Assembly: GCA_010093605.1 (NCBI GenBank)
Contig: MU004184.1
Location: 1,250,801 to 1,314,800, forward strand
Direction of reading: 5' to 3'
Length of the DNA stretch: 64,000 bases
DNA from: Lophium mytilinum
Lineage: Eukaryota
This document shows, in pieces, positions 9,837-55,690 of the stretch. The position numbers were made by a program, and so were the translations under genes. A model generated the notes under the pieces. It was given only the letters and a program-made list of their open reading frames with translations. It did no database searches and had not been told where the DNA came from. Position 1 is the first letter of the stretch. Every line of letters begins with the position of its first letter.

Positions 9837-9977
9837 CGTGGACGAGGGCAGCAATTGCAATGAGGAAGTTGTGGGTGGTGGTGGAGTGGGAAGGAGCTAC
9901 GCGGGTCGAGGTTGAAGATGGGAGGGAAGGCGCGTCGCCGGGACGCTAAACCGCGCCTGCCCAATAAAAGCGGGCCC

Positions 9978-17394: not shown

Positions 17395-18494
17395 ATGGCT
17401 CCGTCTAAGTGGGGTACGTCATGCCATCCATTCCCCTGAGCCGCTTTTGTGCGCAGTTGGCAGCCGGCCTCTGTCGCGTTTGACGGACAAATACTGACTG
17501 TTTCAACTCTGTAGACGATGAAGAGGAAGATAGCACGCCTCCATCCTCCCCGCCCACCGTGCCCCTGGCGCGTCGTGGCAAGTTCGAAGACGAGGAGGAA
17601 GATGACAGCGATGTACGTGAGACCTCATCCCAACCGTCGCGTTTTCACTGTCGCATCGTCCTGTCGCACTCTCACTGCCCTTTATCATTCCTGTCGACGC
17701 GATTGCATGTGGTTGACTCGTTGCTGACACGTCGCAGGTCCTAGAATCTTGGGATGCCGCCGAGGACTCCGAGGTCGAGCGCGAGAAGCAGAAGAAGGTC
17801 GACGAGGCCAAGGCAAAGGCTGAGGCCGACGCCAAAGCCAACCACAAGTCGAAGTCACAACGTATTGAGGAGAAGCGTCAGGAGACGATGAGGAGGCGCA
17901 TGATGGACGATGACTCCACCGAGGAGGAGGAAGACGAGGCTGAGAAGCGCGCCCGGCTACGCAAGACGGAGCAGGACGCGGATCTCGCCCACGCCCAGGA
18001 CCTCTTCGGCGAGATCGCCATCTCCAAGAATCGCGCTGTGAAGCCCGTCACGATCCAGGATACTGCTGATCCCATGAAAGCCCTCGATCTCTCTTCCATC
18101 GCTCTCTTCAACCCCAACACCAAGGACCAGTTTTTCAAGCTCCGCGAAACTCTCGTCCCGCTTCTCACGGCCAACGCGAAGAAGGCGCATTACACGCTCT
18201 TCCTTCAGGAGTTCACCAAGCAGATCGCCAAGGAGCTGCCTAGCGACCAGATCAAGAAGATCGCCAGCGGCCTCACCACGCTATCGAACGAGAAGATGAA
18301 GGAGGAGAAGCTAGCCGAGAAGGGCGGCAAGAAGTCCAAGGCCGCAAAGACGAAGACCAGCCTGGTCGCAACACGAGACACATCACATAAGATTGACACG
18401 AACGCCTATGATGACTTTGGAGAGTAAGGAAACCTCCCCTTGATCTCGAGATACACAAACGACTAACACTTCCAGCAGTGACGACTTCATGTGA
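17395..18494 (+). CDS. HCR1: Translation initiation factor eIF3 subunit J (4 exons)
   Basis: MAPSKWDDEEE, VLESWD, EQDADLAHAQDLFG, IKKIASGLTTLSNEKMKEEK and C-terminal DDDFM*; canonical GT-AG introns. Confidence 0.93.
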
Positions 18495-21552: not shown

Positions 21553-23547
21553 ATGGCTGCTTCAACTCGCGCCATCACCCCCACACACACAGGTCACTTT
21601 GCTGCCGCAAACGCCCCGTCTACACCTACTTCTATATCCTCCGTCGCGCAACCAATTGGTGAGCTCTGACTGACTTCTCCCACTCCTTCACATTCTGACA
21701 TGCGCGAAGCAGCCTCCCAAAACCTGGCCACGCGTCTAACGAAGTCCCCTCTGCCGGGACTGTCGCCGCGACTGTCTCCTCAGCCTCTGACCGGGGCTGC
21801 TGCTATGGCAGACGAACGTCGCCACCGGGAACAACAGGCACGAGAAGCCTCTCGGCAGACGAGTCCGAATCCCGCAATGGCCGCGCTCAAGACTCTAGTC
21901 GGCGTCGATTCCTCGCCGGTGAGCCGACCAACAGACGCGCCGCCTGCGCCAACACAGATCAGCGAGCCTTTGGCCAAGGCGATGAAGAGCATCGTCATAC
22001 CAGAACAGGTTACGCATGACAACATGCAAACAAGTCCGGTAAGCTTGTCAAGCTTTGGCTCTGCAGACAGCACCACTGCCCCTACTGCGACCGCAACGGA
22101 GGCAACATCAGGACCACTGGCGTTGGGGAGCATACCGGTGGATGGTGCGGTGAACTCGAACTCGTCGCACGCGCCTTACAACGGACCGGGCGACACCCCG
22201 ACGGGAAGCAGGGCGTTCACGTACCCCGGCCCTCCTCCAGCAGAACATGATCCCCGCGCGCCACAGCGAGGCATGAGTCTTCCTGGCTATCCCCAGAACA
22301 GTCCGAAATCGCCATCCTCCACGAAGCGTCATAAATGCCCTTATTGCGCCACTGACTTTACGCGCCATCACAACCTCAAAAGCCACTTGCTCACGCACAG
22401 CCAGGAGAAGCCGTACGAGTGTCCCACGTGCCAAGCTAGGTTCCGTCGGTTACATGATCTGAAACGCCACACTAAGCTGCATACCGGCGAACGACCGCAC
22501 ACCTGCCCGAAATGTGGACGCCGGTTTGCGCGCGGAGATGCATTGGCGCGGCACAACAAAGGCCAGGGTGGATGCGCGGGGCGAAGATCCAGCTTTGGAA
22601 TGGACGACGATATGGACGGGAAGGGCGACGAGAGTATGGACGGTGTCTTGTACCACGGGGACCACGGAGATGAGGAAAATTTGGAAGATGACGACGATGC
22701 AGGAGGTCGGAGGGTCAGTGAGCCAGCGCGCAAGAGGCAGAATACCGGAAACTCGATGCAGGGACCATATCACCAGCACTCGAGTACATACCCACCTCCC
22801 CCGAGTAGAGTGCCAAACATGGGCAACAACAACGCCAGGCCGATATACGCAAACCCAGGCGTCTCCGGTTCGTCACGAGATCAGTCGACGAACCTTAGCC
22901 CAAAAAACGCGCCCTCCAGTATATCGTCCCTGCATGCATACACCAACCAATCCGGAACGTTTGCAGGAATGACGGAAAGCCCCAAGCCAATTTCGCCTGG
23001 CCATCCAGACGGCCACCACCGCTTGGGTATATCCGAAGCTGGATCTCACCCCGGCGCCCGCTCTCCGAGCTTGTCCCAGCAGATTCATCAACAGAACTTC
23101 TCTCGCGGCGCTGGACGCGGTTCTTCGCCTATGGGTCTCCCACCGCCACCTCACAACAACTCCAACGCACCTCAACTGCCGTCTTTGCCCGGTCTCTCCT
23201 CAGACATGCGGATCAATCTGCCCAACAAAGGCCCACAAGCAGCCGGCAAGGCAGGCCCCAGTTTGCTCCAGCACCAGCAAGTTCCCGGCCCTGCAGCTCA
23301 GCCCCCGTCGAATCCAGGTAGCATGTCCAGCCACACCACCAACAGTGGTAATAGCATGCGTGATCATATGGGTGGTGCGGATGTATGGGCGCACATCCGC
23401 GAGATCGAAGGCCGCTTTTCCCGTCAGTCAGAGGAGCAACAGGCGCAGATCGCACGTCTAGAAAACGAAGTAACAACCTTACGCGCACAGCTGGCGCAAG
23501 CGGGTGCGCAGCCTCAAGGCCAGACGCAGCCCACAGGGGCACATTAA
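21553..23547 (+). CDS. C2H2 zinc-finger transcription factor (3 fingers, C-terminal coiled coil); intron 21659-21712
   Basis: CPYC..DFTRHHNLKSHLLTH, CPTC..RFRRLHDLKRHTKLH, TGERP linker, CPKCGRRFARGDALARH. ATG 21553 splices in frame across a GTGAGC-CTGAC-CAG intron that contains the ORF-track ATG at 21700. Confidence 0.9.
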
Positions 23548-24947: not shown

Positions 24948-25915
24948 TCACGAGAAGAACTCTGCTTTCACCTGCTTCAGCGTGTCGTCCGGATCCGCGA
25001 CGCTGTGCCCAATCGTGCGCGGGTCCGAGTAGATCTCGTAGTCGTTGCCGCCGGGCGACGTCTTGTCACCGAAGAAGTGGATGGTGGTGTAGTCGACGCC
25101 GTCGGGACGCGCTTTCTCGGCCTCGACGTGCTGCAGGCAGTAGCGCTTGTCCCAGCCGGTAGGGAAGACGTCGAAGGATATTTGGCCGCCGATAGAGTAA
25201 CTAGATTTCCCCCATACAATTAGCATTGGTGTGGTGGGGCAGGGTGTGCACTGTATATTGAAGGGTGAAAGGAGGGATACTCACGTCAACCCCAACTCCA
25301 CGAACTCTTTTTGAAGTACCGCTACCATCTTCTCGCGCACTTTGTGCTCCGTATCAAACACATTAAACGCGTCCCGCTCCGCATTGGTAGCGTTCCTGCC
25401 CACGGGGCTCACATTGACCATGCCGTTCCTAAACTCGACGAATGTTCCGCGCTTGAACGGCAGGTCGATCTCGCTGATGTACCGCAGTAGGAAGTTGACA
25501 AGCTTCTTGTACTTCTCCTCCCCAAGCCAGCCGATGAAGGATTGCGATGCGAGGGGCACACCGAGCCGGAAGGCTGTGAGCCCGTTTTCGGGGAAGCAGA
25601 AGTCGAAGAGGGATGTGACCTTGATTTCGGAGGTGCCGAGCTGTTCTTGTTGCTTGGCTAGGTCGGAGCCGCCCACGTAGCCGATGGCGACTTTTTGGCG
25701 GAGGGCGGACAGGAGGGTGAGCATTTCGGGCTTGACTTCCTGCATGTTGGGGACTTGGGTTAGCCAACGGATCGACTTATGGGAGGGTATTTGGTCTCAG
25801 GAGATAGGTGCCGCACCTGCCGGGATTTTGTGAGCGTTTCGTCCACATCGAAAAGCACAATGGTGTTCTTGATCGGGCGCTCGTTGAGAGGGGGGATCAC
25901 GGCGGCCGTCTGCAT
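24948..25915 (-). CDS. SEC53: Phosphomannomutase (introns 25740-25816, 25201-25284)
   Basis: HAD motif [56 protein letters not shown]. Confidence 0.96.
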
Positions 25916-27047: not shown

Positions 27048-27473
27048 ATGCCACAAGAACGCTTCTTGGGAGATGGGGAGTTGATTGCTGCATATGTACT
27101 TCCAAGGCCGTTCATACATACACCTATCGGCGCCACTCTTGGCCGACCTGAGTCTAACAGAGAGGCTTTGGGGCTCCCTGTAGATGCTTTTCAAGTACCA
27201 GCTTTCCTCCGCCAGACCCCATCCGGCGCTACGTTGCTCCCATTTGAGTCTCATGACCAAACGGTGCCCCCAGATCCGCCATCTGTTGCCGAGCCTCAAG
27301 GTACAAAACAGCCTTCGAAGTCGCGAACGGGCTTCCGAGCACGCAGTAAGTTGACAATCAGGAGGATTTGGCAAAGCCTCACGTTTCGCAGCCACAACGC
27401 GGATCGTGTTGCATGCTCAAGCAGCTCGTCTAAGAGTAATAGCCATGGTCGCCAGGAGTTCGCATTGCCCTAA
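27048..27473 (+). CDS. Hypothetical 141-aa protein
   Basis: ATG-initiated ORF after a pyrimidine-rich leader, co-oriented with and just upstream of the paralog array. No recognisable domain. Confidence 0.35.
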   Translation: MPQERFLGDGELIAAYVLPRPFIHTPIGATLGRPESNREALGLPVDAFQVPAFLRQTPSGATLLPFESHDQTVPPDPPSVAEPQGTKQPSKSRTGFRARSKLTIRRIWQSLTFRSHNADRVACSSSSSKSNSHGRQEFALP

Positions 27474-27933: not shown

Positions 27934-28566
27934 ATGCTGAACCGTCTTAAATCTGGCACGAGCCAAAAAACCACTCTGAGCTTAACCGCTAGAGTTCCCG
28001 AAGAGATCAGCCAGCTTGAAGAGCCATCACGCATGCCGCCTCCTTCGTACGAGGAAGCAAAGCAGCCGCGCGTTTTCTCGGTCGCCGAAGCCACTCGGAT
28101 GTCATGGGAAGCTTGGCGCGACGGCCATTGGACATGCTGCCGTCTATGTTCAACCGAAAATCCTTTCATCAAGACTTGCTACGAAGCATATTCAACTGCA
28201 ATATGTACAAAATGTAAGCACGTTGCCTGTCCTATGTGTACGTTCAGTTCGGCATTTCAGTCACTGTCAACAGCGATGGCACTATCTATCGTAAGTATCT
28301 CCCGCGATCTATTCGGTAGCCCCTACCTCCTTGTCTGCCCTGGCTGTGGAAAATCATCTGGCGGTGGTGTGATCCCACCTCCCATCTTTCAGTGTGCCGC
28401 TCTTAACTGGGCGGAACGAAAATCCATCGAACTAATAGGCCTTAATATCCCACAAAGGATCCGCCGAAAGATAGCACTCTGCTTCAAAAGACGCCCGAAA
28501 ACACCACTATGTGAATGTAGTCGGCCATTCAGCGCCTACCACTGGAACGCTCTTCGACAAGGCTAA
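27934..28566 (+). CDS. PY-motif / Cys-rich zinc-ribbon family protein, array copy A
   Basis: PPPSY, WTCCRLC, CTKCKHVACPMC, FQS, PYLLVCPGCG, CECSRPF..W; same motif order as copies B-E. Confidence 0.75.
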   Translation: MLNRLKSGTSQKTTLSLTARVPEEISQLEEPSRMPPPSYEEAKQPRVFSVAEATRMSWEAWRDGHWTCCRLCSTENPFIKTCYEAYSTAICTKCKHVACPMCTFSSAFQSLSTAMALSIVSISRDLFGSPYLLVCPGCGKSSGGGVIPPPIFQCAALNWAERKSIELIGLNIPQRIRRKIALCFKRRPKTPLCECSRPFSAYHWNALRQG

Positions 28567-28698
28567 TCCTAAGACGAGGCCACGATCATATTCACTGTTG
28601 ACTCACATTCGCTTCTGTCTCACCTCTGAGACTCTTTTCACACAATAAAAGCGCAGCGGCTTATATTCAGAAAATTGAGGTCTTGTCTCTGGTTCCGA

Positions 28699-29316
28699 AT
28701 GTCAAGCTCACCACCACCACCACCCCCGACCTTGCCCTCAGAGAGTCTGCCCACTCCCTCAGTGTCTGCATGCAACCTCTCGTTCTCTGTTGGACCCAAC
28801 AGCCATGCTGCCTTCGCAAGACCAAGACGTTGCTGAAGGCCCGCCGCCAGGCTACTATCATTTCGAGCCGCAGTCTATGGAATACGACTTGGTTTCATGG
28901 CAGTGCTGCACTTGCTCGAATCAGAATAAGCTCCGCGTGAGCCATGCTACTCCCGCCAAGATGTACCACCCGGCCAACTGCAAGCAATGTCGACACTCCG
29001 TTTGCCACCAATGTCAATTCGAAAAATCCTTCCAGGCTGTCCCCAAAGAAATCTACGATCAGATCAAGCGAGTCGGACCTCAACGGTTATGTGCACGAGA
29101 GTTGCCTTCATTGCCTTTTGTTCGCGGTGTGCAACTTGCCACTGGGCTGATACAGTCGAGATTGGGAACCGGAAGCCAAACATCCTAGTTCGTGCCGCGG
29201 CTCACTTGTGGTCGCTTTTGGGGAAAAAGGAGGACCGGGGAAAAGAGGAGTCGAAGTGCAAATGTTGTGACGAACCTTTTAGCGAACAGTGGGCTTGCTT
29301 TCGAAAGAAGCACTAA
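28699..29316 (+). pseudogene. PY-motif / Cys-rich zinc-ribbon family, array copy B (frameshifted)
   Basis: PPPGY, WQCCTC, CKQCRHSVCHQC, FQAVP are in one frame; AFIAFCSRCA and CKCCDEPFSEQWACFR are in another (break at about 29060-29100). A Pro-rich MSSSPPPPPP start at 28699 is also out of frame with the middle part; alternative ATG at 28805. Confidence 0.7.
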
Positions 29317-29940
29317 GCGGAGCCTATAGGTCGGCATCTTAGAGTCTGAGGCTCATTGAGATGCGATGCACTGATTGATGCCGAGAACTCGGAGAACCTC
29401 ACTGCGCGGCTAATCTTTACAGTCCAACTCTCATTGAATAGCACACATTCAATGTTCGCTGTACGCATCCAATTCATCTGCAATATTCATCCAGCACGCT
29501 GCGAAACCACCCTCTTCCATTGACGCATAGACTCAGCACGTGTTGTCCTCACACAGTTTATTTCCCCCGGGCACATTGTTCACATTCAATTTCACTCCAT
29601 GCTCCGTTCTCACATCACAGTGAATCTAGAACCGGCAGGAATATCTCACTCGTTTCAACTGTTCCTCTTGTTTCAATCATTGTGTATGTACCTATACCCC
29701 TCTTCATTCTTCGTTGTATGCGAACTATCCCTACAACATAGTGAAATCATATGTCTCACTCTTCACTTCTCGGTATATATAGTTCCCTCTTCAGTCGGAA
29801 GAAACTCCCCTCTCATCTTTCTCCAAAATCAACTCTTGCAATCCACCACACTGTCAAGAGACCACAAACTGAACTCAGTTGCAACTATTTCGGATTGCAT
29901 AAACACCAGGATTTTCCCCCTAACATTGGATAACACCAAC

Positions 29941-30681
29941 ATGCAGGAACATCCCTGGAGCCGTCCAACCCTTCCAAGCGCTTACGAGTACGAACAGCTT
30001 GAAGCGCTTTCGCAAGCACCCCCGCCATCACCACCGGCAGCACACATTCTCGAGCCACCAGCTCCGCCGCAAACCCCACTACCGGCTTACGTTCGATTCG
30101 AGCAACTACCGCCAACATATGCTCGTCAAGCCCCTCATCAATACCACGAACGGGCATGGTTTTGTTGCCAGTGCAAGTTCACCACCGGCAATGTCCTCCT
30201 GGAGAGCACCAACGGCTTCGTGGGTGTCGCCCGCTGCGAGACGTGCCGCCATAACGCCTGCCCTCGTTGCCTGTGGGACAAAATTCTTCAATCCACTTCA
30301 CTATCAACGATGCGGGCGATCACATCTCTCACAGAATCTTGTGCGCCCATAAGCACGTTCTGTGAACACTGTGGCAAGCACCATGGCGCGGAAATCGGCG
30401 AGACCGATGCACGGCGACCATTGCTCAAACGTGCCAAGACGGCCACTAAAGTCATTGGCACAGCTCTGGTGAATTGGGCGACGACTAAGTCGCTGGAACT
30501 ACCTATGGAGGGATTGCCGACGCCGCGAACGAAGCCAATGGCTTGCTTCCAGTGCGGCCATAGCTTCACGTCCAATTGGGCTACTTTCCACCGATTAGAT
30601 GGAGAGTTTGACCCTGGTGGGACAGCAATGCGGGTGATCCGATTGCGTGAGGAGTTGGCGGAGGTCGTGCAACTACGTTGA
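29941..30681 (+). CDS. PY-motif / Cys-rich zinc-ribbon family protein, array copy C
   Basis: TPLPAYVRFEQLPPTY, WFCCQC, CETCRHNACPRC, CEHCG, CFQCG.SF...WATF, DGEFDPGGTAMRV. ATG 29941 preferred over the longer ORF-track start. Confidence 0.8.
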   Translation: MQEHPWSRPTLPSAYEYEQLEALSQAPPPSPPAAHILEPPAPPQTPLPAYVRFEQLPPTYARQAPHQYHERAWFCCQCKFTTGNVLLESTNGFVGVARCETCRHNACPRCLWDKILQSTSLSTMRAITSLTESCAPISTFCEHCGKHHGAEIGETDARRPLLKRAKTATKVIGTALVNWATTKSLELPMEGLPTPRTKPMACFQCGHSFTSNWATFHRLDGEFDPGGTAMRVIRLREELAEVVQLR

Positions 30682-31988
30682 TACAGATCATCCGGTCGGA
30701 CGAGCAAAGGCGGTTCGATGATCAAATAGAAATGTTTCGTAGTTCAAATCAGTAAGCTATCATATTCGAACCCACTCACGTTCCTCTGCCCTTCTAAACA
30801 TCCACCGATTCTCTATCCAACATAGTTATCATAGCAAAGTTTGTGTCATTTGACACAAAATCTCCTCACTATAGTTTTTCATCCAACATAACCGTGGAGA
30901 TGTTTTACAGGCCGCCATTGCGCCTCCCGAATGGAGAAATGCCACGTTTCAAAAGGTGTTCTGTGAGTTTGCCATATCCCGACCTTCTTCATTAAGAAAA
31001 CGTTGTTCACTTACAATCTCTGTCAATCGACGTACACACATTAGCCATGACTGGAGAAATGAAGATTCCCTACTAGGCTCATTGCTACTTGAAACCAGGA
31101 CAAGGCGAGTATGATGGGATGGAACGACAACGCGGTTGAATGAGAGGCTGAAGGTAACCTAGAGCCATAGGAATATCTACTATAGGGCGAGGTAGCCAAT
31201 AGGTCCTGTCACCTTGGGTCCATAAACCACGGAACAGCATTGGAGAAAAGCGATTCGACGAGGAAATCTGCTGGGAAGTTTCCCAACCAGATTAGGGCGG
31301 CGTCTGACAGCTTAATCGGATTATAATTTAGAGACCCAGCCAAGCGTTTGCAAATTGGGGATCTTCAAGACCTCTGGGAGGTAATTTGTAACCAAAATAA
31401 GCGAAAGACTGTATGTTCTTGCGTGGCTTTGTCTCGAAGATTTCGTTAGTCTAGTTGTAAGGTTGGCCTTTCATCACCGTGTTAGTTTCTTTCGACTTTG
31501 GATAGGTATGTCTATTTCGTATCCCACTCAAAACATAAATGCCCTTTCCAATTCCGCGCTTTAGAATGTACTGACCTACTAAATGTGCCTACCGATGTAT
31601 TAATCGCATCTCCACCTGTCTACAACCCACGCTAGTGATTTCTTTCCCCCATCTATCTCTCTCTGTGGCACATTACTTAGTCAAAAGCGTTGTTATAGGG
31701 CCACCGGCAGCCGACTTGAACGTTGTCCGTGTACGATCGTTGTATTTTTCTCCTGTTCTCCTTTTCATCATTCACTCTCAACGCACTACATGCGCAGTGA
31801 AAGTCAAGGAGGCTCTTTCACTTTCCCTTCCATAGATATATATCTCCTCCAGTAGGCGAATATCCCTTTTCTCATCATTCCCAGAATCTCAACCCGCACA
31901 CCACCACTTCTTTCGACCAGGGTCGGTTCGGATCTAACAGCTTGAACCTAAACTCAATTCTACCTTCCTCAACCTGGAACGAATAAAA

Positions 31989-32870
31989 ATGGACAATGTC
32001 CCAGGAAGCCCTCCACCCCCCTGCGAGCTTCAATCAGGTCAAATTACACCTCCGCTACCTCCTCCTTCGATTGAGATGGACAACCCCCTAGATCTCAACC
32101 CGTTCCCTCACGGTTACCAGGTCTTTGACTACCAAGCTCCGCCCCCGACACCGACACCGGAACCGGAGCAAGACGAAGACCCCTTCCCATCTCTAGAAGA
32201 ATTCTGGCAAATGTTGGAGATACCTCGCGGCCCAACTCCTTTGCCGGCCTATTACCCGTTCGAGTTCAAGCCGCCAGAGTATGATACGCCGCCAGATGAG
32301 CAAGTTCACCAAGGGTTTTGGTACTGCCACGAGTGCCACTTCACTGTGCCTAACAGCGTGCGCTCTGTATCCTCCCTAGGCATGTACTCTCAGGCGAGGT
32401 GTGCACGCTGCAACCACGTCGCCTGCCGCAAATGCATGTTCGACAACGCTCTGCAGCCCATCCCCTGGTCCGAAGCTCGAAAGTTCAAGTATCTCGAATT
32501 TAGCAAGGGCTCGCCATTCTTGGTGGTGTGCAGCCAGTGTGGCTTCATATGGGGGGCATCCGACGAGCAGGGAGGGCGTCGCCAGTGGGCGAAGAACCTT
32601 TTGAAGAAAGGAGTCGTGAAGGTGATAGAAGGGATGTTCAGGACGCCTCCCGGAGGCTATAAGGTTGGTCCGGGCCTGATGGGGTGCGGCTGCAAAGGGA
32701 TATTCGCAAACGATTGGGCTTGCTTCCGGGTTGTTGGAGATGGTCGCTTCGATCCGAATGCGACATCGATGCGGGTGTTGGAGATGGTCGCTTCGATCCG
32801 AATGCGACATCGATGCGGGTGTTGGAAGTGTTGGAGAATAGAATGCCAGAAGGGGAGCGGGTCGCCTTAA
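31989..32870 (+). CDS. PY-motif / Cys-rich zinc-ribbon family protein, array copy D (C-terminus altered by a 44-bp duplication)
   Basis: TPLPAYYPFEFKPPEYDTP, WYCHEC, CARCNHVACRKC, PFLVVCSQCG, CGCKGIF..DWACFR, DGRFDPNATSMRVLE. Confidence 0.8.
   Translation: MDNVPGSPPPPCELQSGQITPPLPPPSIEMDNPLDLNPFPHGYQVFDYQAPPPTPTPEPEQDEDPFPSLEEFWQMLEIPRGPTPLPAYYPFEFKPPEYDTPPDEQVHQGFWYCHECHFTVPNSVRSVSSLGMYSQARCARCNHVACRKCMFDNALQPIPWSEARKFKYLEFSKGSPFLVVCSQCGFIWGASDEQGGRRQWAKNLLKKGVVKVIEGMFRTPPGGYKVGPGLMGCGCKGIFANDWACFRVVGDGRFDPNATSMRVLEMVASIRMRHRCGCWKCWRIECQKGSGSP
32732..32826 (+). repeat. Perfect 44-bp tandem duplication bounded by TGTTGGA microhomology
   Basis: TGTTGGAGATGGTCGCTTCGATCCGAATGCGACATCGATGCGGG at 32732-32775 and 32776-32819, followed by TGTTGGA at 32820-32826. 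Confidence 0.95.
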
Positions 32871-33617
32871 TCTAGAGACTGATCAGGCGTTCAAGACAAT
32901 GGGGCTACTAAAAATTTGGACAATATAGGCTCCACAATCGCCAATATCAGGATGGAAAATGAGCAAGTCGCTTAGAGATGGATCTGGCGTTTATGAGGCA
33001 TTCTGGAACGCGCTCATTGGAGGAGCTATATGGTTCCAGCCACGCCGTTGTACTGGGTGTTGATAAGTCTACCGGCTCTGTGATCTCGGTGTATGGGAAA
33101 CATCCTGTAAGCTAGGAATTAATGACAAAGATGTTTTTTCGACAGTTGCGAGTCGGCAAGCAGCATTGCGGTGTTTTATTTATCTTGTTGCATATGAGAC
33201 AAGCTAACCAGATGATCCTCCCTTGTTTGGGGCTCAGATATAGACTTGTTTCTTTCTACATTTAGCTCTAATACATACTTTTCGTTTTGAAACTCCATGC
33301 CCGCCATTTCATATCTGTCTCTGCGCACTTGGCAACGATGAGCGCCACGCTCTCGCCGGCACCCCTAACATTGTTTTCAGTGTTCCCTCACACCATTCAA
33401 TGTATATGCACTACCTTCGCTATATATACATACCACTTCCATTGTCTGCATACTACATTCGCTGTGCGCCCACATCCGCGACTTTCATTGAATCAGAACG
33501 TCTCAAATTTCGCATTTTCCTATGCATAAATCTCCTAGAACCCGCAAATTTTCTTCTCCTCTCATCTTTCTCCAAACCAGCATCTGTATTCCACTACTGT
33601 GAAAAACTCGCTTTTGG

Positions 33618-34511
33618 ATGAATACGACTTGGGACCCATCTCGCTTTATTCTCTCGAACCACATCACAGAGAACGTGGAAGAACACCACTCCTCCTTCTT
33701 TCCCATATTTGAAGGCGACGAAATGGAGACTCCGTCATCAACGCTAGAGGTAGGGTATGGCCTTGACCACAATCCGTCTGATCATGAACGATATGTTAAC
33801 ACTGACATAGTTCCACGATCAACACCTCCCCCGTACGCAGAGCAAGACGACTACCCTTTCCTAGAAGAACTTGCTCTACATCGACAGCAAGAACAACCCC
33901 CATCCCGGCCAACTACGCCACTTCCAGCGTACGAACCATTTGAATTTAAGCCGCCCGAATACGATACCCCTTCAGGACATTACGTCCACCAGGGTGTGTG
34001 GTATTGCTGTAGGTGCCAGCTCTCCGTAGGCAACAGCCTCCGCGAAACTGAACTTGGTCTTTACGACTACGCAACTTGCGGCTGCGGTCACCGATCGTGC
34101 TCATCATGCATCTGGGATAAAACCGCATTCCAACCCGTTCCCTGGCATATTGCTAAGAAGATCAAGGGTCTCGGCTTCAGCCGTGGGATGCCATACGTGG
34201 TCATTTGTCCACGTTGTACATTTTTCTGCGGTGCACATTTTTTGCAGCCGCCAATGAGCCGACGCTCACGTCTCAAGAAGGCTGTGCTAGAGGGGCTTCT
34301 GCCGGTATACAATTGGGCATATTACCGGCCGGCCTGGGGGAGGAATCTTCCTTCACGGTATAGGGCGTGTAAGTGCGGCGTAAGATTCACGCACGAGTGG
34401 TTGTGCTTCCGCAATCCGGAAGGCCGGTTCGATCCGGTGGGTACTTCACTGCGCGTCCTAGAGATCTTGGAAGATGGTATGCCTGAGGGGGAGCGGGTTG
34501 CCTTGCTTTGA
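33618..34511 (+). CDS. PY-motif / Cys-rich zinc-ribbon family protein, array copy E
   Basis: PPPY, TPLPAYEPFEFKPPEYDTP, WYCCRC, CGCGHRSCSSC, PYVVICPRC, CKCGVRF..EWLCFR, EGRFDPVGTSLRVLEILEDGMPEGERVALL. Confidence 0.8.
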   Translation: MNTTWDPSRFILSNHITENVEEHHSSFFPIFEGDEMETPSSTLEVGYGLDHNPSDHERYVNTDIVPRSTPPPYAEQDDYPFLEELALHRQQEQPPSRPTTPLPAYEPFEFKPPEYDTPSGHYVHQGVWYCCRCQLSVGNSLRETELGLYDYATCGCGHRSCSSCIWDKTAFQPVPWHIAKKIKGLGFSRGMPYVVICPRCTFFCGAHFLQPPMSRRSRLKKAVLEGLLPVYNWAYYRPAWGRNLPSRYRACKCGVRFTHEWLCFRNPEGRFDPVGTSLRVLEILEDGMPEGERVALL

Positions 34512-35143
34512 ATGTCGAGCCGGCATTAAAAGTCAACGAGCGAGAAGACAACCAGCTTTTGAATTACCAAAAAGAGTGAGACAAACGGCGGCTTCGGACC
34601 GCAGAAGAAGAGATCTGTGTAGCAGCATGTTAATTATAGCGTTTAAATCAGGACTTTGTAATCTTTACTGAGATTGTGAGAAAATGAATGTGAACACTGT
34701 TAGGCGAAATGAGTAGTTTTTCAGTTCATGAATCGACACGATTCGAGATGGTGCAAGTGTACTGCTTTGCCCAATAAGGCTTTGGTTTCCAAAATATATT
34801 TATTATGTGCTTTTGAATATGAGGGACCGTGAGTTGTTCATGAGCGACTAGCCCTGAAACCAGATATTCATCCATCAATACTTTGCCGAAGGATATCATA
34901 CCACTGCTTTAATTTTAGGAGTGAACCAAAGAGGGTGGTGTTGGTACCTTGCGGACTTTACGACATGTGCGTGACCAAATCTCGAGATCGAAAGGAGCGC
35001 TTCGCCTATAAGATTCCCTAGCTTGGGCCGATAATGTTCTCGCAGGGAGAAGTCCGACGAATGATTGGACAAGAGCAGGAACATAGCGAAGGGCAGTCGA
35101 GCCTAACCACATAGCTGAGGCACTCCACCCCATTTCCGTCCAT

Positions 35144-36024
35144 CTAGACAAACACACACCCGGGCTGGAACCGCCGAACCATAGCTTCATCGGTATTGGA
35201 TCTAGGTTGCACATGCGGCTGCTGAAAGCGTCGAATAACACGCTCGACATCCTTAGGCTGAAGGCCATATGAATCCTCCTCTTTGGCCTGCGAACACAGC
35301 CGTGTGACCATCTCCCCCTGCAACGTATCAACGATGACCTTCAGGTCTTTCCCCACATTGTCACCAAACAATCGAGCAAGTAACCACAGTAAGGAGTCAT
35401 TCCAGTTCTGTACGTTTTTGTCCGGTTGCGGTGATTCATAGGGATATAGCCGAGTGTGAATGTCAGAGTTCAAGGTCGTAGGCCACATGGAGAAAGGTAG
35501 GATGCTGGTAACCATTTTGCCGTCCAGAGCCGTCCATATGCTTTGGATATACTGGCGACGGCGGGCTTTTCTTGACTGGGAAAGCTGGTCCCAAGGAAGG
35601 TTCACGGGGTCCTCTGGTCCGGGTTCCGTCAGAGAACTCCGTCGACTCTGAACAGAGAGGCTGGGGGTGGAAGTCACGTGCCATTGCTCTAGTGGAGGTT
35701 CACGCGTACGTCCGTGCTCGAGTGGGCGTGGCAGACAGTTCAATAGAGGTGACCGTATAACCTCAGTTGGCATGGGACTCGAAAGGAGCGGGCTTGGATA
35801 TGGGACTGCGTTGCTCTGGTATGATAGGACATCCTTGATTGATGGTAGCTCGTTTGCCTTAGGAGTTGGGCAAGTGGGACCTTGGCCTAGGGGAAGTGTT
35901 AATTCAGAAGCTCGAAGAGGTACAAACAAAGATGCTTACTAATAGCATCGAGTAGTTTTGGCTCCTGAGGGCCGAACCAATGAGGATCCGGGTCGGGAGA
36001 GGTCATGTAACCCGTGTGATACAT
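35144..36024 (-). CDS. Hypothetical protein (intron 35887-35939)
   Basis: A GTAAGC-TTAAC-TAG intron joins an upstream exon (MYHTGYMTSPDP...LDAIS) in frame to the 261-aa ORF. LPSI-type motif and Pro/Ser-rich N-terminal half. The 3' end may continue through another intron toward 34915. Confidence 0.55.
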
Positions 36025-36844
36025 ATCGTTATAATAGTTGGCTAAAGACGTATATATATCACCTGTAACCGTCTCAAATCGACCTCGAGTCTGAGAGACG
36101 ACAGAAAAGTTGAGACAGAAAGGACTTGACAAGCCACGGAGGGGAATCGGCTTGTTTTTACATAGTGCCCCCGAAACGCAAGTTCCCGTGAGCGGCAAGT
36201 TGAGGTTACACGTAACATGTATCTAGCCAGTTAATCTACAGGCTCAAGTTTCGGAGTCATGCATGGACATGGATAGACCTAAATTCTTGCCGAAAAACAA
36301 AATAATGTGGCGTACATATCGGACGCGCGAAGTTTGTTTGCCTGATTGCTCGACTTAAGTCGAGCGGAGCCTCTCCCGAATCACGCATAGACTACGCCCC
36401 CCCACAGGCGTCGTACGACGCACAATCTTCAGTGGGAGCAGGGGCAGCGGGTGCGGGACTCGGGACGGTTCTGGCCGTTCCGAGCAAGATCTCATTGGTG
36501 AAATAGCTTGTCGTTATGCTGTGTCTCCTTGGTTAAAACCCGCCCGGGTATAACCAAATGGTACGTGCGACGAAGTCTGCATGGTAGGCGCGTTTGGATT
36601 GCATCGCAGTCGCGTTTGGCTTGTGACAAAAGTCGCATTTGGATGGTAGAGCGCCTTGGAGTTGCCGAAGAAGCTCAAGTGCTAGCAATCGCTCTCGAAG
36701 TTCACTCTTGGCGCATGGCGCATGATCGAGCTGTCGACGGGTAGATTGTGATTTAATTTGCGCGATTGATTCCCAGAACGTCTGATGTGTGCTTGTGTAT
36801 GACCGCCACCGTGGGTCTCTTCAAAACTTCTGTCGAATGTCTCT

Positions 36845-38940
36845 TTACTGCCACATGACCTTGATCTTGTTAACGATCCCTCCGGGGAGCTCCCTCTCTG
36901 GCTCTTCCTCTGCAAGAACCTGCTCCATGCCCGTGTGTAGGTCGACCTCCTCTGGAGGATGTGCCCATGGGTCGTTCCGTGCATAGATCCTATGACCGAA
37001 GTAAATGCACAGGAAAATGGGGATACCGATATAAGCAGTCAAAAAGCTGCTCGCGTTCCAGTTCTGAGGCCAGAAAACATTGAAGCCGTTGATAAGAGTG
37101 AGGAAGACGAAGCCCACGATCGCAACCCAGGAGCCCCATGGTTGCAAAAAGGAATGATAGGGCAGGTCTGTTATGTTCTGCACTTTGCATGCCTTGCGGA
37201 AACGGAGATAGACAATGCCGCAGCAGATCCACGAGATGAATCCGGATGTGTTCGTCAGGTTGACGAACCAATTAAAGACCACGGCTCCAGAAGATGCCAC
37301 GTTGAGGTAGGCAAGGGCGCAAAAGAGAGAGGACGCAGCTACGGCACGGTATGGTACCCCCTTTTTGGTGCACGCTTTGAAAAAGGCTGGTGCGTTGCCG
37401 GAAAGGGCAAGAGAGTAAAGGGACCGAGACGAGAGGTAGAGAAACGAGTTCCCTGACGACCAGCCCGAAAGGATAATGCCACCATTGATGATGCTGTCCA
37501 AAATGGGAATCCCGGCATTTCTAATGCCAATGGCGAAGGCGGAAGATCCGGCACCGGCACCACCACTGGTGAGCTGTGTGTCGTTAGATGGACAGATAAC
37601 GGAAATCGACAACACACAACCAATGTAGAAGAAGATAAGACGGTAGAAGTATCGACGAGCTGCGATGGGTAAGTTGCGTCTCGGCGATTTCATCTCACCT
37701 CCAGTTACTACAAGTAGTTCGGGAGCAAAGGTAAAAGGGAACGCAGACAAAACGAGCGTACTAAGCAATGCGAGGAAACGACCCCTGTCCCCGCCTGCTA
37801 AGTATGTGTTTGCTGCTCCGGGATGTTTCCAGTAGCGGAAGCCTAAGCGGTCATGCTTCGGACCACCTCCCCAGAAAAGTATGAACGACATAAGGATTAA
37901 TCCCTAGAATTCACCGAGTTAGTAACCTTGGTTTGAGTATAGGGGGAGTCTAATCAGGGAAGATTGTGTTCGCTGGCATGACGGGTTGAGCACTCACCAT
38001 CATCATCACGACCTTGACAGAGGCAAACCAAAATTCGGTCTCTCCATAAAACCCAACGGGTAAGAAATTTAGTCCTACAATCACGACTATCATAACTTAA
38101 AGTGGTAACATAAATGTTAGCGGGGTTTCGAGAAGAAGGGAGTGTGGATTGGGACGGATACTAAGTCCTCTAGTTTTGGTTGTCCTTGAGTACCACTTGA
38201 AACGTGTTTTAAACACCATTTCAGCTTTGAGTTGGTGCTCAAGCGACTAAAATGTGTGCTCAAAAGCGACGTAAATGGGTGTTCGAACACGACATGAGTC
38301 GTTTTACAACACAGTCCCAGGAAAAGTGTTACCAGAGGACTCTGGTATGTGTAATAAGACCTTACGTACTGGAAATCCAAACTGCGATGTTTACATCGGA
38401 GTGCCAATAGTCAATGACCAGTCCAGAGGCGGTGATTTCGTACGGGACCAAAATGCCGAGGGAGTAAAAGTACAGCCAGCCCATAGCAAAGCCCAAGGAG
38501 CGAGAGACATAGCGGTATCCGAACAGGTTCATTGAGGAGCCCGGAGTGGGTAGGTACGCAGCGACTTCGGTGATGGCAGTCACCACACAGAACACAAGGA
38601 AGCTCATCAAGATATAAGAACCAAGAATGAACGCTGGACCACCCCTGGCGAGCGTTTGACCGGATCCAACGAACAAACCAGTTCCAATTGTGCCGCCAAG
38701 CGCGATCATCTGAGCATGTCTATGAGGCAATGTTAGCATTTGATTCCAATTGGAAGTGGATGGAGTAAGTTCCTGCGCCTACCTAGATTTCAGTCCACGC
38801 TGGGTACTCTCGAATCTCTCATCGAAGATCTCTCCAGCAAGAATCTCGGGGTTGACGACCGAGCTCTTCCTCCGAGTAGGCTCAGAGGTCCCAACGCCAT
38901 AATCAGGACTCTTCTCGTCAATGATTTCAGGCTTCCCCAT
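36845..38940 (-). CDS. APC-superfamily amino-acid permease (yeast amino acid transporter family, proline-permease-like), 4 exons
   Basis: RGLKSR|HAQMIALGGTIGTGLFVGSG, YGETEFWFAS.K, GFRYW..PGA, GGEMKSPRRNLP, SSGNSFLYLSSRSLYSLA; multiple TM segments. Confidence 0.93.
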
Positions 38941-41434: not shown

Positions 41435-42013
41435 TCAGCCTTTGATTCCCAGCCTCTCTTTGACCATAGGCAAGAATTCCTCATACGTGTCCAGGAGCGG
41501 AAACCCATATGCCTTCGCCATCACCTGCACATTGCCCTTGCGCCAGAACGCCCTCGGGCAGCACACGATCAACTTGCCGCTCGTCGCAAACAGTCCAAGC
41601 TCGAGCAGGCTGATAGGACTGACGGTGTTTTCGTCCAAGTACATCGCGATCACGGTCGCCTTGTTCATCGCCTCCAGCTCCCATTCCACTTGCCCGCGGA
41701 ACGTAGGGTCGCTGATGTCCGAGACGGTGTTCGGGTCCCAGTTGCCGCATCGCGGGTTGAGCACCGTTACAGGAGCAGGCTTTAGGTGGTCGGTCATATT
41801 GCTCTGCCACTCAACGGCCTTGCCCATCTCGATGCTACCGGCGAGGAAGACAGACGGCTGCTCCTTCATCAATAGGGGATTTTGTGCGATGATGGTCTGG
41901 AAGTCGGCATGGGGTTTGCTATTGGAGGGCGCCTGGGGAAGAGTGATCTCGACCTTCTCTCGCAGCCATGGCGGAGGAAGGTTGTGGATGTTCTTGCTGT
42001 CTGTAGCGGACAT
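41435..42013 (-). CDS. Nucleoside 2-deoxyribosyltransferase-like protein
   Basis: SVFLAGSIEMG...WQ, VTVLNPR..NWD, QVEWEL, SPISLLELGL (candidate catalytic Glu), LIVCCP..FWRKGNVQ. Intronless; ATG 42013 in ACCATG context. Confidence 0.85.
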   Translation of the reverse strand: MSATDSKNIHNLPPPWLREKVEITLPQAPSNSKPHADFQTIIAQNPLLMKEQPSVFLAGSIEMGKAVEWQSNMTDHLKPAPVTVLNPRCGNWDPNTVSDISDPTFRGQVEWELEAMNKATVIAMYLDENTVSPISLLELGLFATSGKLIVCCPRAFWRKGNVQVMAKAYGFPLLDTYEEFLPMVKERLGIKG

Positions 42014-43640
42014 GGTGCTGATTGTGGATTCGCTTGTAGAAGCGGAGGCAGTAGATAAATGCTGGATTATCTGGAGAGTGCGGGCGTGGGTGCTTGATGG
42101 ATTGGTTGCTACTGAAGGAGCCACCTTTGCAGATAATGGTGTTTGTAAATTTAGACTGTTATGAGGATCAGAACAAAGACGAAGACGGAGGTTCACGCGG
42201 ATAGTTATGTACCTGAAGCCGTCGATGGTGGGGCAGCTGCAGGTCCCTGCGGCGTTGATCGCGTGGGGTATGAGGCCGTGAAAGAAAGATGACAGCTGAA
42301 TGCAGTATGTGAGTGGAATGTGTATGTACAGTACGTGAGTCAATCGAGCTGAGCAAAGGCGATGCGATGTTGACTGCTCTCGCGAGATGAGCAATCTTTA
42401 TAGCAGGACGCTCACGGCCGTCGCCGATGAAGCTGTGCCTTTCGAGCTGTAGGCGCGGCCGCAGCCTTGTCAGGTGAAGGCGCCAGCGCTTGCAGGTGTG
42501 GCTTCAATTTTTCAAGGCTCCATGGCGGCGCAGCACATCTTTGACCGCCATCTCTCATCACACAGACAGAGAGGAAATCAGTTGCCTGGTCTTTAGTTCC
42601 CGCTACTTAGCGCCGTAGACGATTTTCAGTAAGGCTAGCAGGCCAGGTTGAAAGAAGGCAGCTTTTGATGCCTTCTACCCCTCTTGCGCCCTTTTCAGCA
42701 CCTTGTAATCGAAACGTGCGAGTTGAGCCACATGCCCTAGCGAGTCACTTGTTATGGTGCATGTGCGAGCAAACAGATACTTCAAGGGTCACGGTGTTGA
42801 AGCTTAGCACTTGTCAGGTACCAATTTGGTCATGCTAATCAACTCATTGACTTTCACGGCGCTCTGCAAGGCTGAGTCTTCGGAATTGACTTGACCGATG
42901 AACAAACATCATTCAAATTAGAAGGACATAGCAATGCGCTCCTTTTGAATGATAACAGCATCTTATTTGCTAGGGTCATGGAGTCGATCTCTAAGAAGAG
43001 GTCATGCTTTCTCCTTCTTTTGTGTTCGAACGGCATTTTCCACCTGCTGAGTTAGTGTCCAGACAGTCCTCCAAGCTGAGAGTATAGTTGCTGCGTGCTA
43101 TCACGTTGATTGACGTGGGAGCCCGTGATCTTAGTGACTGATCATAACGCACTGGGCCCCTCCTGACTGCTGCTAAAGACAGAGTCAGGCCGCAAGCACA
43201 GCCGGTCATCAGAGACTTGACTCTTATAATTATGAGACACGATATGACGTGAGAGAACTATGAGTGACAACAATACCCCCGAGAAACTCGATTTCGTAGC
43301 AGTGTCAAGTCAAGGCCGACGTTGCAACCGCACCTACTTCGGAAACTAACACTCCTTCTCAATATTACGAACTTGAAACTGCAATTGATGGCAGATGTTG
43401 AACAGTAAAAGAAGAAGGAGAGGAAGAAGAACTACAGGATCTGTCACTATAATGAATGATTCAACGACAGCATAGGACGATCATCAATACTTACTCTCAG
43501 TAGTCGGAGGAACAGCACACAACGAAATGGTATAAAGCGAAAAACACCCCAACACATTGCGTCCGCGTTCTTAGAAATCAGGAACAAATCTTATAAGCAT
43601 CAGCCCTCCAGCGTTCCCATCTCCACAAAAGACACCAGCC

Positions 43641-44610: not shown

Positions 44611-46070
44611 CTACATCACGTCCTCACCATAGTCCTCAATTGTCCCATCCAAATGATACATCTTCACCTGGCCGAACCTGTTCACGGTAAACTTCTCGCC
44701 CATCCTCATAGTCATAGCCTTGTTATGTCCTGCTATCTTGATATTGAAACCCCCCTCCTTCGCCCACAACTCCTCCATTTTAAGCCTATCTTTGCTCTTC
44801 GGCTTTCCTTCTTTGATGCGGAGTTTCTCAAAGTAGATGTAGCAAGCATAAAAAGCGTTAGACGTATTGCCGCTGTCATACCCTTTCTTGCTGCGGAACG
44901 ACGACAGCTGGGTGCCGCTGAGGGGGATGTGGGTTGCATGTGTGACGGCATGGCAAAACGCAGCGTTCGAAAGACCAGTTTGGCGGAGGTAGGCATCGAT
45001 TTTGTGACGGACCATGTCACAGGTTTCGTAGACGGGAAGTTCTCCAAGACCGGCAGGCTCGACCGGTATATTGACAGAAGTGAGGTCGGGAAGATCTTCT
45101 TCTTTCTTTTTCTTTGGGGGGCTGGACGCATTCGAGGTCTTGCGCTTCTTCGAGGCGTGGCTCTCAGTCCTGGCAGTATCTGGACTAGCGGAGGAAGGTT
45201 TACGCAAGATGTCGTTGTTGATCTCGCCTTCGTGATCCGAAAGTGCAACATCACCTCCCGGAGGCTCCTTCAACCCCAACTCATAAGCTTCCTCCGCATG
45301 CTTCATTTGCGAGCGCGTGCTAGCCGGTACAAGCGCCCACAGGGTATCGAAGATCGCAGAACGTACCTCGGGCTGTCGGTTATGTGGGATGTTGGATGTG
45401 ATCCACTCGCGGACAGTCTGACGGACGTGCTTGTTGTCAACGTCTTCGACCGTTTTCACTGCATAGAATGGGGGGGCGTCTGGGGGAGGAGACGCCATTG
45501 ACGGACGGTTCATCTGTGATAAGACAATCTGGTGCTCGAGATCGGCGAGCTGCCCGTCAGAAAGCTCTGCAGCTTTCTGGACAGCGCCAAGAGTTTGGCG
45601 ATTGATTTGTCGCTGGGAGTTGTTAACGGAAAGCATTAGAGTCCGCCAACGGAAATTAGACATACCTCGTCTTCTCTCGCTACCCTGAAGGCTTCATCAC
45701 TCAGTAGGTTCTCGAAAGTTCCCGATCGCGCGGCAAACTGGAGCTCCACGTCTCGTACTAGTGCAGCATGTTTATCAAGGTTGAGGAGCGCACTTCTAGC
45801 TGGAGCCATGATTTCATCCACGCTTGTAGAACGTTTTTCCAGGGCGTCGTCATGTGATCGTTTGGCTCCAGCGGCGATACTCTGGGCGTTGGTAGAGACC
45901 TCCGCGAGCGGTTCTCGACGTCCTTCCTCAGAACCAAACTTCGCGAGACCAGAAGCCACGGTTCCGGAAACCATTGATGGGTCCCTAGGAAGTGAAGGAG
46001 TATTGTAAACATCCTTCTCTTGGGACAATGTAGGAGGTGCAATCCCCTCAGGGTGCGTATTGTTTGACAT
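44611..46070 (-). CDS. Conserved fungal protein of unknown function with C-terminal HTH-like domain (DUF7726-like); intron 45613-45665
   Basis: VYETCDMVRHKI..YL, SNAAFC, LSSFRSKKG...GNTS.AFY..Y.YFEKLRI.EGKPKS..R..ME..W. A GTATGT-CAG intron joins the two ORFs in frame. DUF label is from memory. Confidence 0.7.
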
Positions 46071-46999: not shown

Positions 47000-48455
47000 T
47001 CACTTGATGTGCACCTCAATGGCATCCATGTCCTCGATGTCGGAGCTCTTGATCATATCCTGTGGTTCTAGGAGATCGCCGTCGAAGAAGAGAGTTATTT
47101 GCTTGGTATCGGGAATTTTGCTATTGCGGCGAACTGCATTTGCAATTTCCTTGAATGTTGATTCCTGTGCACAGATTTTTAGTAAGTGTCGTGGGGTTCT
47201 CAATGTTTTAGAGAAACGTACAGGATTCACAACCAGCTTGAAATCCTCCATTCCTTTAGCCTTTAGTATCAATCTACATCTGGGCCGCGCTTTGTCAACT
47301 TCTTCCTCGTCATCTACCAAGCCTTCTACGGGCGCCCTTTCATGTATTCCTAGTTCGGCTCTTCTCTTCATTTCCGCGAGGATCTCCTCCGTGACTGCCA
47401 CCAAGTGCACCCTGTCTTCCATATCATCTTCGAAATCGTCCTGCTCATGCTTCTGCCGTAGATTCCCGTGAGCATCTACCTCCAGTCCAAGGCTACTCTT
47501 ACACGTGGCGATGTCGAATAGTCGACGGTTCCGGTAGGTGAGGAAAACCATGGCAGGCGTAATGCCCGGGGGGAAGGTTTGCTTGGCACACCAGACCGAG
47601 CGAACCTCTCCGAGTGGTTGCAATAGCTTCCGCGTGGCTATCAGGGGTTTCGTGCCCTCTATCGGAGATGTAATGAAGAGTTTTACAATGGGATTTGGTT
47701 TCTTTGGAGAGCTAGCGGTAGGGGTCACACTGGTGGGTGGATTGGGAGAGTGCGCCGCGTGTGGTCCACGGTCTCGCATTTGGAGGGTTATAGGCTCGGC
47801 AACCAACTCCACATCGTCGTCATCGTCTTCAAGTGTTATCGGCGTGGGCTGCCTGGGCAAGACTGGCTGTATCGAGGAATCGTCGGAGTCGTCTATGTCA
47901 CCAAGATCGATTATATGGCTGGTGACAACGTCATCGCGGGGTAATGAGGATCTGAGTGCTTCTTCGTAGCGCGCGGAAAGAGAATTGGAATCCGTATTCG
48001 AGCGAGTGGATTTGCGAGGACTGGTGAGGTGAGGAGTCCTACCTGAGCTACACGAAAGTCGGAGCATCAGCTACACTAGATTCGCAGGCATTCGCAGGCA
48101 TAGAACGAGGCAATACTACATACCCTTTTCTTGGGCTCCTGAAAGCAGGGCTCTCGCTCCCCTCTCCCTCTCTACTGGCCCGCCGCCGTTTTGCATGCCT
48201 CTCGCTCTCGTCACTCCTGCGTTTCTTGCGTCTTTCTTCTTTCTCCTTCTGCCTCGCCTTCTCTTCATCTTTCTTCTTTTGCTCCTCAACTATCTCGGCA
48301 AACACTCTGTTTGAGTGCCTGAAAGATTCCGGCTCTGTCTGTGGCGTCTCCGACTTGGTCTCCTCCGCCGTCGCCCAGGCTGGTCTCTTGAAGAACGATC
48401 GTTTCGCGGGTTTGGGGGTTTGCGCAGAGGGCGGGGGAACTACTGCGTCCGCCAT
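47000..48455 (-). CDS. Rad60/Esc2-like SUMO-like-domain protein
   Basis: KRSFFKRPAWA N-terminus, SIM-like IIDLGD/ITLEDD, and two SUMO-like domains (VKLFITSPIEGTKPL...FLTYRNRRLF; TLFFDGDLLEP...DIEDMDAIEVHIK). Intron near 48.05-48.12 kb and a stopless 57-nt intron 47165-47221. Confidence 0.85.
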
Positions 48456-55302: not shown

Positions 55303-55690
55303 GGCGGCGGTATTACTAGAGCTCCTCCAGTATCAAAAAGCTAGAACACAGTTCGTGGAGGGGTACGTCGGTCGTAGCGGGGATAGCCAAGAGGCATGTT
55401 CACCGGCTGTGGGAGGTCATGGAGGGAAATTAAGGTGAACAAGTCATGAGCTTCCGTCTGGGCTCTTGATTGTGAAACCGGTAGAGCTCTAGTGCGTCTA
55501 CCAGCGTTGTCCCAGTGAATGATGTCGTCGTCAGATCACGGGCCCACGGCCGTGTTTCCTCCGAGAGCTCTCTAAAATCAAACACCATGCCAAGCATCTC
55601 GACAAGCAACGTCGCATAGCTTCACCTAATTCCAATTCGCCCATACCGACCCCTCATAATTGCTATACCATCATTTCAACGCCAGAAACC

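Follow-up and report, generated by a model that had tools for sequence, protein, structure and literature searches.

We analyzed a 64,000-nucleotide stretch of the Lophium mytilinum genome (assembly GCA_010093605.1, contig MU004184.1, positions 1,250,801 to 1,314,800 of the forward strand), referred to here as the window, within which all coordinates are given. Between a phosphomannomutase gene and an amino acid permease gene, the window holds a tandem array of five open reading frames (ORFs) on the plus strand, termed copies A to E, whose products carry a PY motif ([LP]PxY) followed by a module with conserved Cys and His residues. A model-generated reading of the DNA letters, the first-pass annotation, had described five consecutive plus-strand genes with one ordered signature. 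All five ORFs were confirmed, and every copy showed the described order, namely, PY motif, W-x-C-C/H-x-C, C-x(1,2)-C-x-H-x2-C-x2-C, Q, C-x2-C, and C-x-C...F...W. The individual copies are as follows. (i) Copy A (27934-28566) is an intact ORF of 210 amino acids with a single PY motif (PPSY, 28039-28050); it keeps all 12 conserved Cys/His positions of the module, and the R-x-DP tail is absent. (ii) Copy B is broken and is read at 28805-29188 and then in another frame at 29089-29316; its PY motif (PPGY, 28844-28855) lies within the first of these ORFs. (iii) The core of copy C (29941-30681) is intact and comprises 246 amino acids from the ATG at 29941, a longer ORF beginning at the ATG at 29599; it has two PY motifs (LPAY, 30079-30090, and PPTY, 30109-30120), all 12 Cys/His positions, and a tail of the R-x-DP type. 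(iv) Copy D (31989-32870) has 293 amino acids as it stands, with a frameshifted C terminus, PY motifs at 32241-32252 (LPAY) and 32271-32282 (PPEY), and all 12 ligand positions, the second of which is His. (v) Copy E (33618-34511) is intact, has 297 amino acids, PY motifs at 33825-33836 (PPPY), 33921-33932 (LPAY), and 33951-33962 (PPEY), all 12 Cys/His positions, and the tail.

The tandem family of very divergent copies proved to be real, far beyond chance. Four pairs were compared by BLASTP, with E values of 1e-57 for D and E (42% identity over 249 columns), 9e-27 for C and D, 2e-11 for A and C, and 5e-11 for A and E. When A, C, D, and E were searched against the whole window with tblastn, only the five copies matched, and the remaining hits had E values of at least 0.06. 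A hidden Markov model (HMM) built from 40 distant members and zero window sequences matched exactly the five copies among the six-frame ORFs of the window, with E values from 4e-20 to 6e-8. Neither this HMM nor tblastn revealed a sixth copy in the window.

We then related the array to known families. A profile made only from window sequences (A2) and the profile of the 40 distant proteins (A4) matched in hhalign with a probability of 99.5% and an E value of 2.1e-22 over 150 columns; in profile comparison, as in the HMM search, window copies and distant members are thus significantly related. Two of the 40 proteins in A4 (P0036 and P0039) are listed with PF26652.1, and one of them is named "Probable double zinc ribbon...". 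The nearest clusters in the ESM Atlas had scores of 0.95, 0.90, and 0.87 for copy A and of 0.90, 0.90, and 0.89 for copy E; 95 to 99% of the members of these clusters carry PF26652 (Zn_ribbon_double), and all are from Ascomycota. Because of the profile match, the Atlas clusters, and the annotation of P0036 and P0039, the array is assigned, on sequence grounds, to PF26652, a catalogued but functionally uncharacterized ascomycete family. The earlier statement that the copies fit no functionally characterized family stands in that none fits; however, the proteins do belong to a catalogued one. No literature was found on PF26652, Zn_ribbon_double, or "probable double zinc ribbon." A search with A2 of 1.84 billion representatives, one per 50%-identity cluster of the protein library, returned 70 proteins at E ≤ 1e-3, 9 at E ≤ 1e-10, and 4 at E ≤ 1e-30; 4 of the 70 were the window's own proteins. 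At threshold, a Pfam scan assigned no family to the five copies or to 34 relatives; it gave no PF26652 match even on P0036 and P0039, which carry this family elsewhere, the model being apparently absent from the copy scanned. A word-indexed protein search, in which E returned only E and alignment A3 (41 database proteins) returned 4 proteins, was taken as incomplete and not as absence. One further protein, P0045 (2,505 amino acids, 127 Cys), has 11 stretches that match the array profile (E = 1.2e-4); as a Cys-rich repeat protein that is probably unrelated, it was excluded from all alignments.

The consensus of the distant members reads D-G-x-W-x-C-C-x-C..E-N..H-P-F..C-x2-C-x-H-x2-C-x2-C..V-C-x2-C-G-L-S-H-R-A..C-x-C-G..W..F.I-G-S..R.D-P. 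The window copies share with the family the Cys/His order G-x-W-x-C-C-x-C, C-x2-C-x-H-x2-C-x2-C, C-x2-C-G, C-x-C-G and, in C to E, the R-x-DP stretch after the last knuckle. They differ from it in that (i) they are outliers without the H-P-F and G-L-S-H-R-A consensus stretches, (ii) they carry the PY motif upstream of the module, which was found within 45 residues upstream in only 1 of 60 distant members (P0038), and (iii) they form a tandem of five, in which A and B have lost the tail. The first-pass annotation had described a G-x-FDP tail as added in C to E. The tail is present in these copies; however, it aligns with the R-x-DP stretch, which is common in distant members, and for this reason it is probably ancestral and was lost from A and B.

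The age of the duplications was assessed from synonymous sites and from relatives in the protein library. The proportion of synonymous differences (pS, Nei-Gojobori) was 0.75 to 0.87 in each of the six pairings of A, C, D, and E, which corresponds to saturation. The ratio of nonsynonymous to synonymous substitution rates (dN/dS), a comparison that had been suggested for the array, was run and gave no meaningful value between these saturated paralogs: it was not computable for five of the six pairs, and the nominal 0.13 for C and D was obtained at saturated dS. Copies B to E each have a best match of their own, namely, P0008 for B (66% and 63% identity in two parts), P0009 for C (56%), P0006 for D (52%), and P0010 for E (56%). 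Since pS is saturated and B to E each have their own counterpart, the duplications are ancient and predate at least one speciation, the split from the relative or relatives that contain these proteins.

The module covers about 140 to 170 residues behind a proline-rich N terminus, which is probably disordered. We tabulated its Cys and His residues in 65 rows (A, C, D, E, P0008, and the 60 distant members), leaving out P0006, P0009, P0010, and P0050, in which parts of the domain are missing. Each of the 12 positions is Cys or His in 47 to 65 of the 65 rows, and the window copies keep all 12. From this number we infer that the ligands would be enough for three zinc ions. In the arrangement that we propose, ribbon 1 would consist of the W-x-C..C knuckle and the first C-x2-C, and ribbon 2 would consist of the C-x2-C-G knuckle and the C-terminal C-x-C-G. 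A third site may be formed by the second Cys of the "CC," the His, and the C-x2-C that follows. The guess at this third site comes from a pattern of co-loss, since in the three rows without the Cys after the His (P0015, P0019, and P0052) the His is also missing and the second "CC" position is Ile, Ser, or Gly; this is a hint that the co-lost residues belong to a single site, in addition to two ordinary ribbons.

Structural models were compared with solved structures. The model of the E core had a mean predicted local distance difference test score (pLDDT) of 70.7 and a predicted template modeling score (pTM) of 0.57, with residues 41-120 and 161-180 at pLDDT 77 to 88 and the PY region at 48 to 60, which fits disorder. 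The AlphaFold2 (AF2) model of the compact family member P0021 (pLDDT 87.8, pTM 0.82) is one confident globule that includes the C-terminal knuckle. The best Foldseek E values were 0.65 for the E core model and 0.24 for the P0021 model, and the best match of the latter was the fingers region of papain-like proteases, with a template modeling (TM) score below 0.2. With VIA-align, none of 48,161 chains reached Z ≥ 2 for the E core; for P0021, 86 chains had Z ≥ 2 and none Z ≥ 5, the best value being 3.9, and these values fall in the range that the tool calls common arrangements. Residues 40-83 of P0021 weakly align with zinc ribbons, NZF/RanBP2 fingers, MCM, and rubredoxin (Z 2.3 to 3.9), the top rows being a microsporidian ribosomal protein (Z 3.9 over 40 residues) and the NZF finger of ESCRT-II (Z 3.6), and residues 85-170 align with assorted beta-sandwiches (Z 2.4 to 2.9). 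A profile search of PDB sequences gave no significant match, the best being the FYVE region of EEA1 (E = 0.8).

These weak neighbors bear on two assignments. RanBP2/NZF fingers have the motif W-x-C-x2-C-x3-N-x6-C-x2-C, and the first knuckle of the window module reads W-x-C-x2-C-x3-5-N; in addition, P0021 has the weak neighbors 2j9u_D (Z 3.6), 2lk1 (Z 2.7), 7e62 (Z 2.6), and 1q5w (Z 2.5). However, the second knuckle of the window module follows about 20 residues on instead of 6, and Zn_ribbon_RanBP (PF00641) was found in only one of six pieces (E = 0.37); by spacing and Pfam, the module was not classified as a finger of this type. The fold likeness (Z 2.4 to 3.6 on 28 to 41 residues) is level with that to other zinc ribbons and rubredoxin. 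The second assignment is a nucleic-acid-binding or transcription-related zinc ribbon in which the PY motif would be incidental. The neighbors of P0021 residues 40-83 that fit it are ribosomal-protein ribbons, an RNA polymerase II subunit, MCM N-terminal domains, and aRF1 (Z 2.5 to 3.9), yet all their Z values are below 4, on 28 to 44 residues, and within the range of common arrangements, and ubiquitin-binding NZF fingers stand in the same structural list. Moreover, no Pfam DNA- or RNA-binding family was matched, and this explanation does not account for a PY motif that is conserved in spite of saturated divergence. We consider it distinctly improbable.

The possibility that the module is a RING-like cross-brace finger and that the proteins are themselves E3 ligases was considered as well. 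By eye, the C-x2-C...C-x-H-x2-C-x2-C...C-x2-C spacing of the module fits the C3HC4 RING pattern, and the Pfam family zf-C3HC4_2 appeared below threshold in A (E = 0.029), D (E = 0.045), and the distant member P0031 (E = 0.007). These matches amount to 14 to 17 bits against a cut-off of 27 bits and cover only the C-x-H-x2-C-x2-C piece, and the other four pieces of the array had no match; RING membership was not accepted. Sequential ribbons are the better fit for an additional invariant Cys ahead of the "C3" position and for an additional C-x-C-G knuckle. In 6 of the 65 rows another residue takes the place of the His, and no RING was found in the profile search of PDB sequences. The chance that these proteins are RING ligases therefore appears very slight.

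The PY motif is the second conserved element of the array. An [LP]PxY lies 16 to 30 residues upstream of W-x-C in all five copies as well as in the B-like protein P0008 and the D-like protein P0006. Its P..P.Y columns show no variation between A, C, D, and E, and the last three of these copies have a second PY motif ten residues further on. When the 45 residues upstream (31 for B) were shuffled, the probability of the motif was 0.02 to 0.26 per copy. Since the motif has persisted despite saturated divergence, its survival argues for selection on these residues.

The first-pass annotation had also stated that two copies show damage, which was borne out for B and D. The core of B is read in the frame of the ATG at 28805 to about position 29086, and from about 29101 the homologous reading continues in another frame, which carries the C-x2-C knuckle and the C-terminal C-x-C. 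The frameshift thus falls in the zone 29087-29100 (plus strand), within which the exact base is not placeable, and no GT..AG intron fits this zone. When both frames are combined, B keeps all 12 Cys/His positions. The start of B had been placed at 28699, which was not upheld: the ATG at this position does not share the frame of the B core, and the frame that it opens stops after 45 codons. The segment 28699-28804 in this frame is possibly a former 5' end of B. By eye, it resembles the N terminus of P0008 before it stops, and because of this likeness a second shift in B, near 28800, is possible. A run of CCA/CCC repeats upstream of B (28708-28727) is read as poly-Pro from ATG 28699 and as poly-His in the frame of the B core and is a likely site of length slippage. 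Contigs were available from a public run (X1) whose RNA nature is guessed, which cannot rank expression, and which may share the sample of the assembly. An X1 contig over 27974-29683 has zero differences from the assembly, the B shift included, an agreement that is not independent if the sample is shared.

Copy D contains an exact tandem duplication of 44 bp, in which 32739-32782 is repeated at 32783-32826 on the plus strand (44 of 44 bases identical) and which shifts the frame. Downstream, the other frame (32783-32872) reads an E-like tail with 73% identity to the last 30 residues of E and 86% to the tail of the D-like P0006; this argues that the duplication is derived and recent. The X1 contigs break on either side of the duplication and neither confirm nor refute it. 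Though broken, B and D keep every ligand residue. As the frames stand, three copies (A, C, and E) are judged to be intact and two (B and D) to be recently disabled.

These lesions bear on the idea that the array is a decaying remnant, that is, a once-working cluster under relaxed selection that is drifting to pseudogenes without present function. The frameshift of B, possibly double, and the fresh duplication of D fit such a remnant, as do the partial state of all four close relatives and the identity of only 52 to 66% between orthologous pairs. However, (i) the frames of A, C, and E are open at full length; (ii) all 12 ligands and the PY motif survive in five copies despite synonymous saturation, for which long purifying selection would be needed; (iii) both lesions look recent, given the identical 44-mers and the intact ligands of B and D; and (iv) contigs of X1, which is probably RNA, cover A, B, C, and most of D. 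The contigs do not include 33273-34527, which contains most of E, and this is no evidence of silence. Furthermore, the partial relatives may be a sampling artefact and are no proof of decay, because the library shows one representative per 50%-identity cluster and intact orthologs may be hidden in the clusters of the window's own proteins. We regard the remnant as unlikely, although it deserves to be kept in view.

The first-pass annotation had read the array as a local expansion under birth and death, a pattern that it linked to conflict, meiotic, or ubiquitin-targeting genes. Copies do die, since two of them carry fresh lesions, but the saturated pS and the one-to-one matches speak against a recent burst. 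A conflict-type or meiotic family with rapid birth and death would fit the tandem arrangement, the strong divergence outside the ligands, the death of two copies, and the low identity between orthologs. Yet recent birth is lacking, as the duplicates are saturated and stand in one-to-one relation with another genome; no repeats or mobile elements were found bounding the units of the array; and the wider family is widespread in Ascomycota. With old duplicates, an ascomycete-wide family, and no result in favor of either role, we set the conflict and meiotic readings aside as having little chance of being correct. The ubiquitin-targeting idea has the conserved PY motif as its sole basis.

According to passages in PMC9105457, PY motifs bind the WW domains of HECT ligases of the Rsp5/NEDD4 family, and yeast has several PY adaptors other than arrestins, among them the soluble Hua1. 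We propose that the PY motif of the array proteins would dock on the WW domains of the Nedd4-family HECT ligase, which is Rsp5 in yeast and HulA in Aspergillus, and that the zinc module would be the partner-binding end. A, C, and E (and, before they broke, B and D) would then be soluble adaptors or regulated substrates of Rsp5/HulA; as an alternative within the same proposal, the proteins themselves may be turned over via this ligase. We tentatively predict soluble proteins with a zinc module that bind Rsp5/HulA through their PY motifs, a serious possibility that falls somewhat short of a probable one. The more specific idea that the paralogs are lineage-specific soluble adaptors, in which a three-zinc module lacking a convincing solved counterpart was joined to PY motifs and which steer the essential ligase to different targets, is doubtful; if true, it would give PF26652 its first function and define a new class of Nedd4-family adaptor.

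Two known proteins offer partial likenesses to the proposed design. Hua1 has a zinc-finger part and is, like the window proteins, a small protein with a proline-rich PY region; this likeness concerns architecture only. LITAF/SIMPLE, as described in PMC3033906 and PMC5095921, has N-terminal PPXY motifs and a C-terminal Cys-rich zinc domain, so that a proline-rich N terminus with PY motifs that bind WW-domain ligases precedes a Cys-knuckle zinc domain, as in the array. However, the LITAF domain has a hydrophobic membrane anchor of 22 residues between its knuckles (PMC5095921), whereas in the window copies a polar stretch of about 30 residues separates the knuckles. Since, in addition, Pfam gave no LITAF match at E ≤ 1, membership in this family was rejected.

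Several observations weigh against the proposed ligase link. (i) The wider family lacks the PY motif, and the core function of the module is therefore one that does not need it. (ii) Within a proline-rich stretch, a PY motif arises at little evolutionary cost and would serve equally well as a plain degron. (iii) No convincing solved counterpart of the module was found with Foldseek or VIA-align, and therefore the fold yields no functional lead. (iv) The assignment of ligands to sites goes back to co-loss in only three sequences. (v) All four close relatives are partial with respect to the full architecture: the first ribbon is missing from P0006 and the C-x2-C-G knuckle from P0008, and only C-terminal parts are present in P0009 and P0010. 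Together with the two broken copies, they may reflect relaxed selection on the whole array.

The contigs of X1 also inform on gene structure. The description of the genes as intronless is valid for the cores; gene C is an exception, since one X1 contig skips 29684-29782 (plus strand), joining 29683 to 29783. This 99-nucleotide segment (GTATGT..TAG) is a typical fungal intron that lies upstream of the ATG at 29941 and in frame with the ORF from the ATG at 29599. A local alignment of the upstream ORF of C with the N terminus of E scored 37 over 26 columns, and homology is not claimed. A CT-rich 22-mer occurs at 29806-29827, about 110 nucleotides upstream of the ATG of C (29941), and at 33555-33576, about 40 nucleotides upstream of the ATG of E (33618), with 21 of 22 bases identical; it may be a shared core-promoter box. 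Upstream of the array, a 1,699-nucleotide X1 contig (26249-27947) has its end slightly beyond the start codon of copy A. With a depth of 29, against 7.2 for the contig that covers A and B, it is about four times as deep. All ORFs in it are short and lack Pfam matches (for example, 27048-27473); the contig may represent a transcript not yet annotated or a long 5' leader.

The flanking genes, both on the minus strand, were recognized correctly as SEC53 and a permease. On the left is the phosphomannomutase (SEC53-type) gene at 24948-25745, in two ORF pieces that match Pfam PMM with E values of 1e-59 and 6e-37; on the right is the amino acid permease gene, whose 3' exon-sized ORF at 36845-37903 matches AA_permease over 36845-37891 (E = 4e-76). 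Between E and the permease gene, a stop-to-stop ORF of 263 amino acids on the minus strand (35144-35935) has no Pfam match and sits under an X1 contig spanning about 34762-37948. Elsewhere the window carries genes of an ordinary fungal kind, and this gene content, together with the GTATGT intron donor, points to fungal DNA. By Pfam match, these genes are, to the left of the array, WH1 (1734-3512), Cdc6/ORC-like AAA (7809-9896), Eisosome1 (11239-12816), Y_phosphatase3 (13989-14732), an eIF3 subunit (17717-18427), and a C2H2 zinc finger (21670-23547) and, to its right, a nucleoside 2-deoxyribosyltransferase-like protein (41435-42397), DUF7726 (44611-45693), Rad60-SLD (47000-48070), Adaptin_N (51885-54113), and TPR/EMC2 (55523-56461). 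The 16 long window ORFs scanned with Pfam included no WW or HECT gene.

PF26652 is an ascomycete-wide family whose function has not been described, and the array can be seen as an experiment of nature with this family: its five old paralogs have retained nothing but the metal ligands and the PY motif, which marks the residues that matter. If the ligase link fails, the array would be no more than a common type of gene cluster, partly in decay, that encodes a domain of unknown function. If the link is true, the known PY adaptors of Nedd4-family ligases would be joined, in filamentous fungi, by a class with a soluble zinc module.

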